A stretch of 64,000 bases of DNA from an uncultured Solirubrobacterales bacterium (lineage in GTDB: Bacteria; Actinomycetota; Thermoleophilia; Solirubrobacterales; Solirubrobacteraceae). A model generated the notes under the pieces. It ran no database searches. It was not told where the DNA came from and saw nothing but the letters and a program-made list of their open reading frames with translations. Numbering within the stretch: the first letter of the stretch is position 1; every line of letters begins with the position of its first letter. Positions 40,795 through 49,949 of this stretch are shown one piece after another. The translations under genes were made by a program, and so were the position numbers. Location: contig OY970372.1 in NCBI GenBank assembly GCA_963718735.1, positions 1,796,366-1,860,365 on the forward strand, given 5' to 3'.

Positions 40795-41145
40795 GATGCC
40801 TAAGCATTGCATTGCCCGGCAGATGAGGCTCCATGCCAGCGCTCGAGGCCGATCTCCGGCCGGGAGTCGCCGGTGCGGCGGATATCCGGTCGGTGCGAGC
40901 GGCGCTCGGATCGGATCCCGGCCCATCTGTGCGCAGCGCCGGCGCGCGCGGCCCAAGCGCAGACGGCGGGCTTCGACTGGCGCTGACGAGCGCTCCTGTC
41001 GACTTTCAAGTAAATACTGACGATTTTCGCGCGTGTCGATCTATCCTGCCAGCAGGCGCAACGCGACCCGCGAACACGACAAAACGTTCACCGAACGGTG
41101 ACGGCAGGAGATCCGCCCAAGCCGCGGAAACGCTCAATAACTCAA

Positions 41146-42682: not shown

Positions 42683-42704
42683 GAAAGTCAGGTACTTGAC
42701 TTTC
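42683..42704. promoter_or_regulatory. Perfect palindrome GAAAGTCA-N6-TGACTTTC, candidate operator
   Basis: Read directly from the sequence. Half-site copies at 41001-41007 and 49986-49995. Confidence 0.5.
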
Positions 42705-43854
42705 AAGATGCCGCAGCGCGGTCGCCCGCTGCCAGGACGCGGCCGGACTCTGAGGGCGTCTTCGACACGCGTCGCAACGAGCGGCGCGCGCCAAGGATCG
42801 CCATCGTCGGCGCCGCGAGTCCCCCGATCGCCTCGAGCACCGACGGCGCCACCAACCGCGCGTGCGGTGAGACCGAGCGGTGAATCTCACATATATAGAA
42901 GCTCGCCATCGCAGCCACGATCAGCGCATGACGCCGTCCGCAGGGCAGCGCCACGGCGCGACGCAGGGCCTCGCTTGCGATCGTCCGCATGCGCGTGGCG
43001 GCGTCGAGCGGCGAGGCGTAATAGCCCATCAGAGCACGCCCTTCGATGGCGAGGTCCTCGTCGTGATCCACGAGGCTGTCCAGCAGCGAGTGAAGCGAGC
43101 CGATCCAGGGAAAGTAGGCGTTCTCTATCTCACGCGCCTCGAACATCCCGATTTGGGGATCGGCGGCGCTGGCGATCAAAGCCAAGACTGTGAGAGTCGA
43201 TCCCGCGCCGGCGGCGGTCTCCCACGGGCGCATCCCGGTCTGGGGCGCGGTGGCCTGCGCGGCCCATCGCTCGAACGGCTCGTAGGAGCCCCTGGCGTCA
43301 CCGTGGTTGAAGCTCTGGTAGCGGGCTATTCGCTCGGCTGCCCGAGCTATCGGCTCGCCGATCGAGGGCAGCGACGGCAACGCCGAGAGAGAAGCACGAG
43401 CGACGTCGACCAGCATCCTGAGATAGCCGCCGTCCTCGCCGCACGGGTGATGGATGTAGTAGTCGCGATGCGGCTCCCCGCGCGTGGTGGCGACGATCAG
43501 GGCCTCGTGCAGCCGATATCCGTTGGCCACAGGGTCTCCGCTGGGCTGCTCGGAGAGCAGATCGAGATAGTCGCAGATCGCCTGGCAGGCGACGAGGGCC
43601 CTGACGACGAACGGGCGACTGGACGACGGCACGAGCGCCGCGAAGGCCGCGGCGCCCTCGAGATTGCCGCGCTTGCCGTCGAGCGCCTCCAGCGCGAAGC
43701 TGCGCAGCACAGGATCGGGAATGCCAGCCGCGCGCCTGCGCCTGAGGCACACCTCGCGCGCAACGCGCGGGAAGACCGCTAGCCAATAGCGGCGAGCCGT
43801 GCACGCAAAGTCTGCCGCGAGCCAAAGTCCGTCCTTACGTATTACCCGAACCAC
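42703..43854 (-). CDS. DUF2600 / tetraprenyl-beta-curcumene-synthase-like (class IB terpene synthase family)
   Basis: RYWLAVFP, ICDYLDLLSE, DGGYLRMLV, YQSFNH, WETAAGAGSTL, YFPWIGSLHSLLDSLVDHDED. These resemble the class IB motifs DYLDNLxD and DY(F/L/W)IDxxED. Confidence 0.75.
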   Translation of the reverse strand: MVRVIRKDGLWLAADFACTARRYWLAVFPRVAREVCLRRRRAAGIPDPVLRSFALEALDGKRGNLEGAAAFAALVPSSSRPFVVRALVACQAICDYLDLLSEQPSGDPVANGYRLHEALIVATTRGEPHRDYYIHHPCGEDGGYLRMLVDVARASLSALPSLPSIGEPIARAAERIARYQSFNHGDARGSYEPFERWAAQATAPQTGMRPWETAAGAGSTLTVLALIASAADPQIGMFEAREIENAYFPWIGSLHSLLDSLVDHDEDLAIEGRALMGYYASPLDAATRMRTIASEALRRAVALPCGRRHALIVAAMASFYICEIHRSVSPHARLVAPSVLEAIGGLAAPTMAILGARRSLRRVSKTPSESGRVLAAGDRAAAS

Positions 43855-43895
43855 AGGGATAGCATTGCGTACCCGTCACGAGCCCGCCAACAACA

Positions 43896-46460
43896 TCAAT
43901 CCTGCAGACTGACACCTGGGCGCACGCGCGCCGCCGCAAAGCCAGGCAGGGCGATGACGGCAAGGGCGATCATGATAAGGAGTCCAAAGGTTAGGAATAC
44001 CTGAACTATTCCAATCGAGAATGGCGCTGGAAAGCCCGTCGTGATGGTCAGCCAACGACTGGCAAGCGCGTGACCGTAGACGCCGACCAGCGCTCCGATG
44101 GTCGATCCAACCCCGAGCATGACACCGCTCTCGAGCAGCAGTCCACGCCACAGCTGGTTCGGGTGGTAGCCCTGGATCTTCAGCGAAGCAAGCCTCGAGC
44201 GACGCTGCCACACCGTGGCGCTGAGAGCCGCCGCGACGGCCAACGCCGCCGCGATCAGCAGCAGTGTCGAGATCTGCTGGAGCGTGTGCAGCCCCTGCCG
44301 AGCGCTCGCCTCCGCTTCCGCCGCACGCGCTCCGGCACTGCGCACAGATAGGCCGGGATAGGATCCGAGCGCCGCCCGCACCGACCGGATACCAGCCGCA
44401 ACGGCGACTCCCGGCTGGAGATTGACCTCGAGCGCCGACGCTCCGCCTGTTTGCCAGGCACGACTGTAATCAGCGCTTCCCATCGTGATCGTGCCGCCAG
44501 GCCACCCCGAGTTGGTGGTGATCGCAGCGACGCGCAGAGGGATCGTTCCCGAAGGCGTGGGCAGCTGAAACGAGCTTCCAACCCTGAGGTGGTGGTGTTC
44601 GTCGGCAAAGCCATTGGACACAGCGGCCCAGCCACCCGCGCGGATGAGCGCGTCGGCGCGTGAGAAGCTGCCGCTGAGCAATTGGCTCGATTCGAGCATC
44701 GCAGAATCGCCGGGCGGTCTTGCGCGGACCCACAGGCGACGTCCGCCAACATCTGCGAGCGTCCCCTGATAGACCCTTACAGACCTCACGCCCGGCGTCC
44801 GCGCGAGCCGCGCTGGGGCGGACGGGAGGTTGAAGCTGTCCGTGTTGAACACATTGTCCGGGTTGGCGACCCAAATATCGGCCGTGGCATGGTATTCGGA
44901 GATCGCCCGGTCGATCCCCCGCAGCAGATCGTCGCGAGTCCCGCCGATCGCGACGCTCCCATAGACCGCAAGGCCCACGATCGCCGTGAGCGCGACCGAG
45001 CGGGTTGTAGTCGCGCGCAACTCAGAGACGGCGACGATCACGGCGCCGCTGCGGCTGTGCTCTGCCAGACGCGGCAGCCACCCCACCACCGCCGAGAGCA
45101 AAGCCGGTATCAGGCAGAGCGTCGCCACGGCCAGCGCGACGCCGCCGAATATCGTGAGCCCCGGCGCGAGCGCGACGAGCACGCCGACCAGCACGAGCAG
45201 CGTCATGCCGCCGATCGCCGCCCGCCGCGATGTGCTCGCCCGAAGCAGTTCCCCTCCGCTGTCGGCCTCGCGGAAGATGGCGTCGGCGGGACGCCCCGGG
45301 CGCAGATCGAACACCGGCGGGAGCGAAGCCAGCAGCGTAGCGAGCACTCCGAAGGCGACGGCGATCAGGACCAGGCTCACCCCCAGCGTGTGTTCTGGGC
45401 TGACCGGAAAGGCCACGCTGAGATATGTGGGCACGTGGTGATAAAGGGTTTGCGAGAGGAAGTCGCCGACCGCGACGCCCACGAGCGACGCAACCAAGCC
45501 GAGCATGACCGCTTGGAAGCTGAGCAGCATGAGAATCTGGCGCGGGTCATAGCCCTGCATGCGCAGCTCGGCGACGAAGCGGCGGCGCTCGGGGACGGTC
45601 AACAGCATCGCGTTGAGCGCCAGCAGGAATCCGACCATCACGCTGATCGCCGAGAACAGGCTCGTCGACTGCCGGTTGGGCTTCGTAGCCTGCGTCAGAA
45701 GGCGTATTTCGTTGTCGGCCGGCTCCACGTCCAGGCGCCCGCGGGCTAGGCGACGCAGCTCGCCGGCGACAAGCGCCTCCTGGCCCGAGCGTGGCTTTAT
45801 CAGCAGCTCGGTGACACGCCCCGGGCGAACGGCGAGGTGCTGCGCGACGGGCAGCAGCGCCACCACGACCGGGCAGCCAGCGAGCGCTTTGATCGCTTCG
45901 CTGGAGATCACCGCTCCGACGCGCTCGACGTAAGCATGGCCGTTGCCGACGAGCCTCACAGCATCGCCTCTGTGCGCTCCGATCGCCGCGGCGACGCCGG
46001 CGGGCAGCCCGAGTCCGCCGGAGAGCAGCAACGCGCCGTTGCCGAGCTGTTGCTGGGCGATGCCGCCGAGCGAGGCAAGGCTTGGCGAGACCCCGATCAG
46101 CTGGATCGCGCGGGGACCCCGCGCTCCTGAGATCGCCATGTTCTGGCGCAGCACAGGCGTGGCGATCTGCACGCCGGGGAGCGCCCTGGCCGTTTGCGTC
46201 AGTCGTTCGGGAAAGCCGGCCGGCGAGCGCGCCACGAGCGCAAAGCGCGCCGAGCCGGAGAGGCCGTGGACGAGCTGCTGGACAGAGCTCGTCAGGCTGG
46301 CATTGGCAAGCAGCACTCCGAACACGAGCGCGACGCCCACTGCGATGCCAGCGCCGGCAAGCAGCTCCTGGACGGGGTGGGCGCGCAGGCGGCGGCGATA
46401 GAGGAACAGCAGCATCGTAAGGCGCACCCCAAGGATCCTGGGGTTGACGGGATTGCTCAC
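43896..46460 (-). CDS. Fused double FtsX/MacB-type (type VII) ABC permease
   Basis: 854 aa with two repeats of TM, large extracellular domain and 3 TMs. Coupling motifs ERRRFVAELRMQG and QRRSRLASLKIQG. GTG overlaps the upstream TGA. Confidence 0.88.
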   Translation of the reverse strand: MSNPVNPRILGVRLTMLLFLYRRRLRAHPVQELLAGAGIAVGVALVFGVLLANASLTSSVQQLVHGLSGSARFALVARSPAGFPERLTQTARALPGVQIATPVLRQNMAISGARGPRAIQLIGVSPSLASLGGIAQQQLGNGALLLSGGLGLPAGVAAAIGAHRGDAVRLVGNGHAYVERVGAVISSEAIKALAGCPVVVALLPVAQHLAVRPGRVTELLIKPRSGQEALVAGELRRLARGRLDVEPADNEIRLLTQATKPNRQSTSLFSAISVMVGFLLALNAMLLTVPERRRFVAELRMQGYDPRQILMLLSFQAVMLGLVASLVGVAVGDFLSQTLYHHVPTYLSVAFPVSPEHTLGVSLVLIAVAFGVLATLLASLPPVFDLRPGRPADAIFREADSGGELLRASTSRRAAIGGMTLLVLVGVLVALAPGLTIFGGVALAVATLCLIPALLSAVVGWLPRLAEHSRSGAVIVAVSELRATTTRSVALTAIVGLAVYGSVAIGGTRDDLLRGIDRAISEYHATADIWVANPDNVFNTDSFNLPSAPARLARTPGVRSVRVYQGTLADVGGRRLWVRARPPGDSAMLESSQLLSGSFSRADALIRAGGWAAVSNGFADEHHHLRVGSSFQLPTPSGTIPLRVAAITTNSGWPGGTITMGSADYSRAWQTGGASALEVNLQPGVAVAAGIRSVRAALGSYPGLSVRSAGARAAEAEASARQGLHTLQQISTLLLIAAALAVAAALSATVWQRRSRLASLKIQGYHPNQLWRGLLLESGVMLGVGSTIGALVGVYGHALASRWLTITTGFPAPFSIGIVQVFLTFGLLIMIALAVIALPGFAAARVRPGVSLQD

Positions 46461-47161
46461 GAGGAGACTGGAGCGAGCTCCGCGTCGAGCCCGTCGACCG
46501 CGCGACCGTCGCGGAGCGTGAGCATCCGATCGACGAACGAGGTGGCCTCGGAGTCATGCGTGACGAGCACTCCCGGGATACAGCACTCGTGGCATACGTC
46601 GCGCAGCAGCGCGAGAATCTCGCGGGTGCGCGCCGAGTCGAGGTTGCCGGTGGGCTCGTCCGCAAGCAGCAAACGCGGCTCTCCCACGAGAGCGCGCGCG
46701 ATCGCGACGCGTTGGCGCTCGCCCATCGAGAGCTGCTCGGGCCTGTGGTCGAGCCGATCACCGAGGCCGACGCGCTCGAGCCACGGAGTCGTCTTCTCGC
46801 GCGCTTCGCGCACCGTGTAGCCACTGACGGGCAGCTTGATGAGCGCATTGTCGAGCGCCGATGCGCCCGGCATCAGATGGAACGACTGAAATATGAAGCC
46901 GACGTCGCGCAAGCGGTAGCGAGCGCTCTCGCGCGATGACATGGCGCCAACGTCGTTGCCCCCGAACAGCACGCTGCCGCTGTCGGGCGCCATCAGCCCA
47001 GCGGCGAGCAGCAGCAGCGTGGTCTTGCCGGAGCCACTCGGGCCGTAGATGGCCACGAGCTCGCCGGCTCCGATCTCCAGCGTCACGCCGTCGACCGCGT
47101 GCACGGTCTCGCCGCCACTCGGATAGTGCTTTACGACGTTGCGCAGAGCAAGCGCGCTCAT
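46457..47161 (-). CDS. ABC ATP-binding protein (LolD/MacB-like)
   Basis: GPSGSGKT, GFIFQ, LSMGERQR, LLLADEPTGNLD and VTHD. Confidence 0.93.
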   Translation of the reverse strand: MSALALRNVVKHYPSGGETVHAVDGVTLEIGAGELVAIYGPSGSGKTTLLLLAAGLMAPDSGSVLFGGNDVGAMSSRESARYRLRDVGFIFQSFHLMPGASALDNALIKLPVSGYTVREAREKTTPWLERVGLGDRLDHRPEQLSMGERQRVAIARALVGEPRLLLADEPTGNLDSARTREILALLRDVCHECCIPGVLVTHDSEATSFVDRMLTLRDGRAVDGLDAELAPVSS

Positions 47162-47910
47162 GAGCCGGTGTCTCGAATCGTGTCCAACCGCGGCGTCGTG
47201 GGGAACGGGACGATCGTGGCGCTGACCTCGCTCGAGCACAGTTCGCGCGCGGAGATCGACATCAGCACGTCGAAGCCTTGCAAAGCGGGGAGATCGTCGG
47301 AGGCGACGAGCAATGCGGCGCCGCGTTCGCGGGCGATGGTGCGCAGCAGCCTGTAGAGGTTGTCGCGCTCGATGGTGCTTGGCGTTATGACCGGATCGTC
47401 GAGCACGATCAGGATCGGCTCGCGGGCAAGCGCCCTGGCGAGCATCACGCGAGTGCGGTCGACCATCGAGAGCTGTGTGGCGAGCGAGTGTGCCTCGACG
47501 GCGCTGACGCCGACGAGGTCGAGTTCGCGCAACGCCCTGCGTTCGGCCTCGCGCACCGTGCGCCCGTCGCCGCCGAGCGAGAGAGCCAGGTGCTGGATGA
47601 CACTTTCACCCGGATTGGGACGCCAGTCGCAGATGGCCACATACGCCAGGCGCGAGCGCAGCAGGCGGGCGTGCTCGCCGCTGGAGATGCGAGTGAGATC
47701 GTGCCCGTCGAAGAGCACGCTGCCCGTATCGGGGCGGTCGATGCCGGAGGCGATCCGCAGCAGGGTTGACTTCCCCGAGCGCCGTCTGCCATAGACGCCG
47801 ATGTGGGCGCCGGCGGTCAGCTCCAACGAAGCATTGTCAAAAACGGCTATCTCGCCGCTTCCGTCGGGGTATGCCTTGCTGACGTCGCGAATGCGCAGCA
47901 GGGACGTCAT
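47158..47910 (-). CDS. Degenerate ABC ATP-binding protein
   Basis: GRRRSGKS Walker A, but signature LSMVD, Walker B IVLDDP and H-loop VASDD. Confidence 0.85.
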   Translation of the reverse strand: MTSLLRIRDVSKAYPDGSGEIAVFDNASLELTAGAHIGVYGRRRSGKSTLLRIASGIDRPDTGSVLFDGHDLTRISSGEHARLLRSRLAYVAICDWRPNPGESVIQHLALSLGGDGRTVREAERRALRELDLVGVSAVEAHSLATQLSMVDRTRVMLARALAREPILIVLDDPVITPSTIERDNLYRLLRTIARERGAALLVASDDLPALQGFDVLMSISARELCSSEVSATIVPFPTTPRLDTIRDTGS

Positions 47911-48503
47911 CGCAACGGCTGACGCCTCGCGTGCTCGGCGATGCGGTCGCGCGCGGCCGCCGCCCAGTCGATCTCGGCGCGCAGCTGCGTGTAGACGGCT
48001 TCCCGAGTGCAATCCATGTAAAGCGCCGCCCAAGAGCGCTGCGCGCCTCCGTTGGGGGTGACGAGCTGAGCCAGCGCAAGGCACTTCTGCTCGTAGTCGC
48101 GCAACGCGACCATCAAACGAGGGGCGTCCTCGGGACGGGCGACGGCGAGCTTCGCGTGCAAGCCGAAACGCACGGGCTCGCGCGGGAGCAGGGTCTCCAT
48201 CCAGAGCGTCAGGGCGTGGGGCGTCTTCTGGGTGGGGTGGTAGACGATCATCGTGCGCCGCCCGTTGTTCTTGCGTTCCTCGCGCGAGACAAGCAGCTCC
48301 TCGCGCTCGAGCTGCTCGAGCAGCCGGTAAGCGTCGTTCGTGTCCAGCCGCCAGGTCTCCCCGAGTCGCACGAGCATGCGATTGGCAAGGTCCCCGCCGT
48401 GACCGGGACGCTCGAGCACCAACCCGAGCAGGACCCCGCGCATCGAGGCCGAGCCGCCACGCAGCCACTCCCGCTTCTGGAGCTTCCCCCGAGGATTAGC
48501 CAT
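47907..48503 (-). CDS. PadR-family transcriptional regulator
   Basis: VLLGLVLERPGHG, YRLLEQLEREEL and RMIVYHPT-like wing. ATGA overlap with the NBD gene. Confidence 0.8.
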   Translation of the reverse strand: MANPRGKLQKREWLRGGSASMRGVLLGLVLERPGHGGDLANRMLVRLGETWRLDTNDAYRLLEQLEREELLVSREERKNNGRRTMIVYHPTQKTPHALTLWMETLLPREPVRFGLHAKLAVARPEDAPRLMVALRDYEQKCLALAQLVTPNGGAQRSWAALYMDCTREAVYTQLRAEIDWAAAARDRIAEHARRQPLR

Positions 48504-48983
48504 CGCTCAACTCACTCTCCCGATCCGGTGACTCAGGATCCCGTCCATGTCCCGTCCATGCCATGTGTGCCTTCTTCACAACCAGTCGATCTGACAGAAT
48601 ACTACAGGAAGCCCCAGATCTATGCCATTGAATGAGATTCATCGGATCAGTTGTGAGGTTTAGATCGGGTGATTGAAGACGATTCGTTACAAAATTTAGG
48701 CTCAATTCCGTGAAATGGAATACGCGAAGCCTCAACGGCCAGCCGCTCGACCGGGCCGCGAGCGAGTGTGCCAGCGATCGCGCGTAGCGCAAAACTGACC
48801 GTATAACGTGACTTTTTGGTTGCCCTCAGGCTGGGCGCGACCCGCTTTCCGTGACGAGAATCGCTCTCTAGGGAGCCAAGTTCACAGCAGTGCGAAAGCC
48901 CCATCCATAGTCAGAGACAATCGGTGAAGACTCGTTTGCGTGTTTTCGACTTGATCCCTCATAGGCAGCTGTAGGCACAACGC

Positions 48984-49949
48984 TCAGGGCAGCTTGAGCG
49001 AGCGCACGATCTCCTCGCCGTGGGGTGAGAGCGTCCACGCGTTGGGGCGACCGGCGCCTCCCGCCCGCTTGGTGAGCACTTCCAGTCGCTCCAAGCGCGA
49101 GAGCAGGGTCGAGGCCTGCCCGAGGTGCTTGATGCCGATTCCATTCGCGATCTTCTTGTTGCTGGCGCCTGGATTCTCGGCTATGTAGAGCACGCAGGCC
49201 CGCGCCCTGCTCGCCCTTGCGTGATGCAGTTGCTTGGGAACCGGCACGCGCGGGCGCAGTGGCTTCGCGGAGCGCTCTTCTGCGAGCACCTTGGAGCGCT
49301 CCTCTCCGAGCCTGGCGGCCTCGATCGCTTCATCGGGCCCCAGGAAGGGCGTGACGACGAGCGCCGCAAGCTCGCCGAGCAGGCTTATGAACGGCGGAGC
49401 CTGGCGGGAGACCATGCGCGCGTGCAGGATCCCGGCGACCGACACGACGGCGGCCTCGGCGGTCACGGCCGGCGGTTGACGATTCGCCGGCAGCGTATCC
49501 CTCACGCCGTCGACCAAGGTCACAAGCGGCTCGAGCAGCTTGGCGCGATGCTCGAGCGCCGCCGGAGGGCCGGCAAGCGCGTCGACCAGGCAGACGCGTG
49601 CCAGCTCCGGCTCGGAGTCGAGCAGGACCAGCAGAGCCTCGAGGCCCGCGAGCACGCTCGATCTCCACAGCTTCTCGCGCTCGAACGCGTCGCGGATCAG
49701 GTTGACCGGCCACGAGGTGACCTGCTGGACGAGCTCGACGAAAGCCTGTTCGACGCTACCGAAGATGCCGGTGAAGGTCACCCGCGAGACGCGTGCCTGC
49801 GCGGCCACAGCCCCGATCGTCGTGCCGTACAGCCCGCGATCGGCGACTATCTCGGTCATCGCCGCGAGCATGCGCCTACGCTGGACCTCGACGATCTGCT
49901 TCTGCGAGCGCCGACGGGGACGTGCGGAGGGAGGTCTCCTGGATGGCAT
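48984..49949 (-). CDS. TetR/AcrR-family regulator with an additional C-terminal winged-HTH
   Basis: QRRRMLAAMTEIVADRGLYGTTIGAVAAQARVSRVTF. C-terminal PGASNKKIA...GQASTLLSRLERLEVL...NAWTLSPHG. Confidence 0.8.
   Translation of the reverse strand: MPSRRPPSARPRRRSQKQIVEVQRRRMLAAMTEIVADRGLYGTTIGAVAAQARVSRVTFTGIFGSVEQAFVELVQQVTSWPVNLIRDAFEREKLWRSSVLAGLEALLVLLDSEPELARVCLVDALAGPPAALEHRAKLLEPLVTLVDGVRDTLPANRQPPAVTAEAAVVSVAGILHARMVSRQAPPFISLLGELAALVVTPFLGPDEAIEAARLGEERSKVLAEERSAKPLRPRVPVPKQLHHARASRARACVLYIAENPGASNKKIANGIGIKHLGQASTLLSRLERLEVLTKRAGGAGRPNAWTLSPHGEEIVRSLKLP

Follow-up and report, generated by a model that had tools for sequence, protein, structure and literature searches.

To our knowledge, it is not known how cells move very hydrophobic C25-C35 terpene hydrocarbons out of the membrane. 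Type VII ATP-binding cassette (ABC) transporters perform mechanical work on the outer side of the membrane; they do not pump across the bilayer and have no transmembrane channel. One such protein, YbbP, extracts hydrophobic molecules from the membrane (PMC12646458). Class IB terpene synthases carry a motif A, DYLDNLxD, and a motif B, DY(F,L,W)IDxxED, each with three essential Asp residues (PMC5939612), and the product of YtpB reaches the surface, or outer layers, of the B. subtilis spore, where the exporter was not named (PMC11708026). Here, we present an analysis of an operon in a 64,000-nucleotide stretch of contig OY970372.1 from an uncultured Solirubrobacterales bacterium, an actinobacterium of soil (the window, to which coordinates refer unless a genome or locus label is given), in which a DUF2600 gene for a homologue of these synthases follows the genes for a type VII ABC transporter. 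The protein families are known; the pairing and the operon architecture are undescribed. A first-pass annotation, made from the sequence of the window alone, had already suggested this for the pairing in this lineage, and the literature on DUF2600, class IB synthases and PadR/FtsX in actinobacteria indeed gave no description; likewise, a full-text search returned no paper in which an ABC transporter is tied to DUF2600 or to class IB synthases, nor one about the terpenoids of this lineage.

The genes padR, NBD*, NBD (for nucleotide-binding domain), the permease gene and the DUF2600 gene form one tightly packed operon. All five lie on the minus strand exactly where the first-pass annotation had placed them, as judged from the open reading frame (ORF) listing and the translations:

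padR: 47907-48503, minus strand, a PadR-family winged-helix regulator of 198 amino acids (aa)
NBD*: 47158-47910, minus strand, a degenerate ABC ATPase of 250 aa
NBD: 46457-47161, minus strand, a canonical LolD/MacB/FtsE-type ABC ATPase of 234 aa with the signature LSMGERQ
Permease: 43896-46460, minus strand, a single-chain type VII ABC permease of 854 aa with a double FtsX
Spacer from the permease stop to the DUF2600 start: 43855-43895, minus strand, 41 nt
DUF2600 gene: 42703-43854, minus strand, a class IB (YtpB/BalTS-type) large-terpene synthase homologue of 383 aa
Conserved upstream block: 48570-48650, minus strand, from an alignment of 14 orthologous upstream regions

The three four-nucleotide stop/start overlaps that chain the first four genes (ATGA at 47907-47910, ATGA at 47158-47161 and GTGA at 46457-46460) are real and are also kept in orthologous loci. 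The permease stop codon is at 43896-43898 and the first in-frame start of the DUF2600 gene is a GTG at 43854, which confirms the 41-nt distance; a Shine-Dalgarno sequence is not evident at this GTG, and a spacing of ~45 nt between the permease and DUF2600 genes is kept in orthologous loci. A consensus scan, which is a weak test, detected no terminator-like or promoter-like site in the 41-nt spacer, and because the conserved upstream block was not called by the same scan, its outcome is uninformative either way.

Relatives are found in Solirubrobacteraceae metagenome-assembled genomes, in agreement with the Thermoleophilia lineage assumed by the first-pass annotation. In its own genome (3.4 Mb), there are five DUF2600 genes, each of which adjoins a paralogous cassette of an NBD and a double-FtsX permease; three of these cassettes have the order of the window together with the second ATPase and a small winged helix-turn-helix (wHTH) gene, one has the order NBD-permease-DUF2600, and one has the order DUF2600-NBD-permease. 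We surveyed the neighborhoods of 142 DUF2600 copies in 140 loci from ~95 related genomes (80 of the loci come from species genomes; the other 60 are additional DUF2600 sites in 15 genomes of the family). Among these copies, 118 are located directly downstream of a permease gene with a median gap of 95 nt, nine are directly upstream of an NBD-permease pair, and eight are adjacent on the other strand. Two others have a divergent cassette 1.6 kb away, one belongs to an interrupted locus with a cassette within 8 kb, one is at a contig end, and three have no ABC gene within 9-10 kb. The first-pass annotation had named rare adjacency of DUF2600 and ABC genes in relatives as the observation that would speak against its proposal; 135 of the 142 copies lie beside a permease gene.

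The two proteins have also diverged together. The pairwise distances of synthase homologues and permeases are correlated with r = 0.88 for all cassettes and with r = 0.66 for within-genome paralog pairs (permutation p = 0.001); because the latter pairs lie inside one genome, their correlation is not explicable by species history. Moreover, the same 32 of 301 family genomes hold both DUF2600 and a close permease homologue (E < 1e-60), and both genes are missing from single members (G420, G311 and G410) of three genera in which the system is otherwise present. DUF2600 was detected in none of 400 other genomes spread over Actinomycetota, elsewhere in the class only distant double-FtsX permeases with 25-29% identity were found, and within the phylum the DUF2600 family is confined to a few Solirubrobacteraceae genera. 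In the genomes that have them, the cassettes are present in 1 to at least 7 copies, and the DUF2600 and permease families fall into 14-29 subfamilies at 45-50% identity. Thus, the linkage is far beyond chance, and the synthase and transporter genes behave as a single unit in evolution, whether they are gained or lost, duplicated or diversified. The single "dedicated module" of the first-pass annotation therefore stands as a linked unit and is refined to one member of a multi-copy cassette family of few genera. The window cassette itself is a single-copy member of one subfamily, and in ~28 species, in which the DUF2600 orthologues are intact, it is part of a syntenic block that comprises the TetR-like gene, the cassette, rmlC, a methyltransferase gene, ctaA, a deacetylase-like gene and the genes for ribonucleotide reductase. 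Because this block is stable, the downstream rmlC is probably a mere neighbor.

Gene fusions of synthase and permease, which would point to physical contact, were also considered and rejected, since all 64 same-frame neighbors are separated by at least one stop codon and the long open frames noted in the family genomes are high-GC artefacts. At one locus (L090; G611:C1:3111222-3113305), two tandem DUF2600 genes follow one permease gene.

The DUF2600 protein matches Pfam PF10776 with 218 bits (cut-off 25) over profile positions 1-312 of 328, and phmmer aligns its residues 26-323 to the Bacillus alcalophilus large-terpene synthase BalTS (PDB 5yo8) with an E value of 5e-34. An AlphaFold model built from an alignment of 50 diverse relatives (predicted local distance difference test [pLDDT] score, 91.6; predicted TM-score, 0.90) was matched by Foldseek to 5yo8_A and 6loo_A, the latter being the substrate-analogue complex of BalTS, with an E value of 1e-17, TM-scores of 0.81-0.90 and root mean square deviations of 2.3-2.4 Å. 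The protein is predicted to be cytoplasmic and all-alpha and has neither a signal peptide nor a transmembrane (TM) helix. In the window, motif A reads DYLDLLSE, with the first two Asp residues present and Glu at the third acidic position, and motif B reads DSLVDHDED, with the three essential Asp residues at D259, D263 and D267 and Ser rather than Tyr after the first of them. Among 133 members of the lineage, the first position of motif A is Asp in 119 and Asn in 14, the second is Asp in all 133, and the third is Glu in all 133; in motif B, the position of D259 is Asp in 127 and Glu in 6, while those of D263 and D267 are Asp in all 133. The Glu at the third position of motif A is, on this alignment, a conservative lineage-wide variant, and an acidic residue appears to be held under strong constraint at the metal-binding positions, except in the 14 members with Asn at the first. 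The terpene-synthase call of the first-pass annotation is thus borne out with respect to the class IB fold and the acidic motifs by the Pfam match, the fold match to BalTS and the 133-sequence motif table.

Compared with the Bacillus class IB synthases BalTS (5yo8, 6loo), BsuTS/YtpB and BclTS, the window protein belongs to the same Pfam family, shares the all-alpha class I fold and the cytoplasmic location at 27% identity, and has the two acidic motifs at matching positions. In contrast, the Bacillus enzymes have Asp at the end of motif A, where the window lineage has an invariant Glu (D[YF]LDxxxE), and Tyr at the motif B position that is occupied here by Ser or Asn. The genetic context is also different: ytpB of B. 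subtilis shares the ytpAB operon with a gene for a hydrolase, whereas the DUF2600 gene here sits in an ABC transporter operon and the Solirubrobacteraceae genomes that carry it have from 1 to at least 7 copies.

The permease matches FtsX twice (77 bits) and MacB_PCD in Pfam. Hydropathy predicts 10 TM helices in a 4+2+4 pattern, and outside the cytoplasm the protein has two domains of ~210 aa each, which are beta-rich and span residues 57-262 and 513-724. It therefore contains the FtsX-type four-helix unit with a large extracytoplasmic domain between helices 1 and 2 that is typical of type VII transporters, and the NBD provides the cognate LolD/MacB/FtsE-type ATPase. In a fold search with the AlphaFold model (pLDDT 83), the best and only full-length match was E. 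coli YbbP (9ge6_A; E value, 5.5e-19; TM-scores, 0.60/0.63), followed by LolE/LolC, BceB, HrtB and MacB. A sequence search against the PDB returned LolC as the best match (E value, 4e-10) and also found MacB; it did not recover YbbP, so that it is the fold search alone that relates the permease to YbbP. Among the paralog permeases, TM1 and TM7 are the most conserved segments, and we take the equivalent helices in LolCDE to be those that line the lipid-binding cavity. The extracytoplasmic domains of the paralogs are conserved at 0.51-0.55 versus 0.56-0.72 for the membrane helices. From membership in the family, we infer that the window transporter works by mechanotransmission. Accordingly, the first-pass annotation was right to assign the transporter to type VII, but its "export" is better replaced by extraction from the membrane or the periplasmic side, which fits type VII better. 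Between ctaA and the methyltransferase gene, ~3 kb downstream of the operon and on the opposite strand, a short open stretch (40836-40935, plus strand) encodes 32 residues that are 78% identical to permease residues 676-707, where the second outer domain ends; this stretch resembles the remnant of a permease gene.

Among described transporters, YbbAP resembles the window system in that a single permease chain carries both FtsX halves, linked in YbbAP by two additional helices, for a total of 10 TM helices, along with a pair of extracytoplasmic domains, and both YbbAP-TesA and the window operon pair a type VII "extractor" with an enzyme acting on hydrophobic molecules. However, the window permease and YbbP are only 15% identical in sequence. 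Moreover, the partner enzyme here is a cytoplasmic synthase upstream of the membrane step, whereas in YbbAP-TesA it is a periplasmic hydrolase receiving the cargo, and the homodimeric YbbA ATPase contrasts with NBD plus NBD* and a PadR gene in the window operon, which contains no secreted hydrolase gene. LolCDE, which extracts lipid-anchored cargo from the outer leaflet, provides the best PDB sequence match of the permease (LolC) and the best match of both ATPases (LolD); however, the window scores fall far below the NCBIfam equivalog cut-offs, the permease is fused into one chain, and the ATPase pair is heteromeric. In addition, the host lineage is Gram-positive, and LolA/LolB-type genes were not recognized near the cassettes. 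Consistently, Solirubrobacter has been described as Gram-stain positive (PMC10722151). With the BceAB modules, the window system has in common a 10-TM FtsX-type permease, a dedicated regulator, several paralogs per genome and, in B. subtilis, a physiological tie to long-chain prenyl diphosphates. In contrast, BceB has one large extracytoplasmic domain and the window permease has two, signaling involves a histidine kinase there and PadR here, and a terpene synthase is not part of Bce modules.

The NBD matches ABC_tran with 116 bits, and its best NCBIfam matches are LolD (212 bits), FtsE, MacB, DevA and YbbA, all below the equivalog cut-offs. NBD* matches ABC_tran with 69 bits, and the degeneracy noted by the first-pass annotation holds up in an alignment to LolD: Walker A (GRRRSGKST) is kept, the Q-loop Gln is lost, the signature is LSMVD, Walker B is LDDP with the catalytic Glu replaced by Asp, and the H-loop His is replaced by Ser. 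Across 109 homologues of NBD*, the consensus is GxRRSGKST for Walker A, LSxx[DE] for the signature and S[ED][ED] for the H-loop, and the Gln of the Q-loop is missing; Walker B has DD in the clade of the window and the canonical DE in others. Because the missing Q-loop Gln and H-loop His, the degenerate signature and the unusual Walker A recur in this set, NBD* is, as far as these motifs tell, a conserved non-catalytic subunit and not a decaying gene. In the paralog cassette c1 (G000:C1:1166618-1168865, in the genome of the window; partly in L001), a degenerate ATPase gene occurs twice with identical N-terminal sequence, flanking the small wHTH gene, which looks like a recent local duplication.

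The PadR protein matches PF03551 with 29 bits (cut-off 27) over residues 25-91 and PadR/AphA structures in the PDB with E values of 0.006-0.008 over ~120 residues, a weak but consistent match to the PadR family with its N-terminal winged helix-turn-helix and C-terminal region of dimerization helices; its orthologues are 83-97% identical. PadR-like genes were detected only in cassettes with NBD*, with one exception. The converse does not apply, and NBD* as an obligate partner of PadR was rejected, as ~33 cassettes carry NBD* without a detectable PadR-like gene. Similarly, the small wHTH-like proteins at the padR position of c1 and c2 were rejected as PadR proteins, as they score below the Pfam PadR threshold and match the window PadR with an E value of 0.014. 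Elsewhere in the same genome (G000:C1:2889548-2890833), a PadR homologue that is 35% identical to that of the window is followed by an NBD*-like ATPase gene; no FtsX-type permease hit lies nearby, and the pair of regulator and dead ATPase may therefore exist apart from this transporter.

In the 14 orthologous upstream regions, there is one conserved block, which includes CTGTAGTATTCTGTCAGaCCGACTGGTTG, amid diverged intergenic DNA. It contains a -10-like TAGTAT at 48599-48604, ~95 nt 5' of the padR start, and the block is probably the promoter and operator of the operon. A search of 48500-48700 for a palindromic PadR operator yielded just weak repeats and an 11-nt tandem duplication that is specific to the window; none of these is conserved. 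The duplication lies in the padR leader at 48539-48560, is perfect (TCCCGTCCATG twice, plus strand) and is absent from orthologous loci. Directly upstream of the cassette is a 321-aa gene (48984-49949, minus strand) whose match to TetR_N is weak, scoring 19 bits and missing the cut-off; the gene is retained at this position in most of the ~28 orthologous syntenic loci.

Altogether, we see about an even chance that the cassette is one of a set of lineage-restricted, multi-copy "make-and-extract" terpene-lipid systems, here under PadR control. For the window cassette, we infer the production of a terpene, the prenyl substrate, the identity of the ABC cargo and the sensing by PadR. According to this model, the substrate of the cytoplasmic synthase would be a long all-trans prenyl diphosphate drawn from the general pool, likely the precursor of the long menaquinone side chain. 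No prenyltransferase was found near any cassette and the two of the genome are both far away, which is why we suggest that the synthases draw on the general pool. Solirubrobacter species use menaquinones of the MK-7 (menaquinone-7) type, and a C35 diphosphate should therefore be available. Once the diphosphate has been ionized off, the synthase would set free a terpene, acyclic or monocyclic and very hydrophobic, that enters the membrane. Powered by ATP hydrolysis at the canonical NBD, with mechanotransmission to the extracytoplasmic domains, the ABC machine would then extract the terpene from the bilayer and hand it to the cell surface or the medium; since type VII transporters work mechanically on the outer side, extraction of a hydrocarbon is a plausible job for it. 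NBD* would be a non-catalytic structural or regulatory partner, and repression of the operon by PadR would last until it is lifted by a hydrophobic ligand or by a signal from the membrane. We further speculate, although we regard this as rather unlikely, that the synthase docks on the transporter, perhaps via NBD*, and feeds its product straight into the YbbP-type extractor, the subfamilies supplying a repertoire of long-chain terpenoids to the surface or surroundings. A cytochrome P450 gene directly follows DUF2600 in the paralog cassette c2 (G000:C1:2265855-2267237, partly in L002; Pfam, 166 bits; start 17 nt past the DUF2600 stop) and in five other loci (L069, L127, L131, L132 and L142), which fits a biosynthetic role; in such cassettes, the extracted cargo would be an oxidized terpene derivative.

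Several observations weigh against the make-and-extract model. As its third acidic residue, motif A has Glu, whereas Asp is found in the Bacillus enzymes. Beyond the P450 in one subfamily, no tailoring enzymes were recognized, which is thin for a natural-product cluster, and the cassettes have neither a dedicated prenyltransferase nor a class II cyclase; in total, two trans-prenyltransferases are encoded in the genome of the window, and neither is close to a cassette. An extracytoplasmic acceptor protein is missing from the window cassette, and none of the 64 same-frame neighbors checked is a synthase-transporter fusion. A sixth paralogous ABC cassette (c6) in the same genome has no DUF2600, and this type of transporter can therefore work without it. 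Finally, a genome with 5-7 or more copies is as reminiscent of a family of resistance modules as of biosynthetic clusters.

The last point leads to the main alternative, which we nevertheless hold to be unlikely, namely that the cassettes are envelope-stress or antibiotic-resistance modules in which the ABC transporter shields a lipid-linked cell-wall or membrane target from an antimicrobial, as do BceAB-type transporters. DUF2600 would then drain a sensitizing long-chain prenyl diphosphate or add a membrane terpenoid, PadR would switch the operon on under stress, and the many paralogs would correspond to many antimicrobials. Genomes likewise tend to have several paralogous Bce-type modules with a separate regulator for each, which parallels the diverged copies, 1 to at least 7 per genome, seen here, and BceB is among the fold matches of the permease; however, YbbP and LolCE are better matches than BceB, and the genes identified next to the cassettes include no Bce-type histidine kinase or response regulator. 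Nor are the outer domains hypervariable among paralogs when compared with the membrane helices. In B. subtilis, ytpB is part of the sigma-M envelope-stress regulon: cell-wall antibiotics such as bacitracin induce it through sigma-M, and it also plays a part in resistance to bacitracin (bioRxiv 10.1101/2024.01.17.576085). By the accounts of Kingston 2014 given in PMC7038271 and PMC5939612, loss of ytpB causes heptaprenyl diphosphate to accumulate and, thereby, bacitracin sensitivity; a general drain for prenyl diphosphates, however, needs no near-obligate pairing of each synthase with its own transporter. The lack of a prenyltransferase and the few tailoring genes in the cassettes agree with resistance, whereas the P450 next to DUF2600 in one subfamily fits biosynthesis better.

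The cassette could also serve sensing and homeostasis, with the transporter, NBD* and PadR reporting on a terpenoid or prenyl lipid in the membrane, the synthase adjusting it, and the product staying there as a structural lipid. We consider this quite improbable. BceAB transporters act as flux sensors for their regulators, NBD* is degenerate yet conserved, which is compatible with a signaling rather than an energizing role, and PadR-like genes are, but for the one exception, confined to NBD*-bearing cassettes; moreover, the products of YtpB in Bacillus are membrane-localized C35 terpenoids (bioRxiv 10.1101/2024.01.17.576085). However, NBD* occurs without a detectable PadR-like gene in the ~33 cassettes mentioned above and cassettes with a single NBD also carry DUF2600, so that the NBD*-PadR pair is not essential to the link between synthase and transporter, and it is not obvious why a structural membrane lipid would need 5-7 separately regulated synthase-transporter pairs. 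As for the idea that DUF2600 is a mere syntenic neighbor of an unrelated ABC transporter, it is effectively refuted by the comparative data. Because housekeeping genes (rmlC, ctaA and those for ribonucleotide reductase) are stable syntenic neighbors of the window cassette in ~28 species, adjacency among close orthologues alone would prove little; but adjacency also holds for paralogs with ~33% identity in unrelated chromosomal contexts, comes in three different gene orders with correlated divergence, and is accompanied by the identical presence and absence of DUF2600 and permease in the 301 genomes.

Other genes in and around the cassettes are varied. The regulators identified beside them are PadR-like, IclR and TetR proteins. 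Assignment to a known defense system was rejected, as PADLOC gave generic ABC-ATPase similarity only. The cassettes c1 and c2 have a third-position GC content below that of the rest of their genome, and an ORF near c2 (2254599-2255801) is integrase-like by eye from its N-terminal sequence alone. The cassette c6 (G000:C1:2104967-2115111) is flanked by TetR-like, glycosyltransferase-like and P450-like genes, which were named from sequence only, with no search run. c6 and c4 share a secreted protein of ~260 aa (2145652-2146449, beside c4), of which the c4 copy has no Pfam match, and similar secreted proteins occur near seven other DUF2600 loci.

The pairing of synthase and ABC transporter points to an undescribed route in which a long terpene lipid is made and then removed from the membrane. 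With nearly every synthase copy accompanied by its own type VII ABC "extractor," the cassette is a concrete genetic handle on terpene removal. The class IB terpene-synthase family is extended from Bacillus to a deep actinobacterial lineage with a conserved motif variant, and type VII ABC transporters may gain a new job as well as a new subunit composition, in which a canonical and a degenerate ATPase are combined. Moreover, dozens of diverged synthase-transporter pairs are available for the discovery of large terpenoids.

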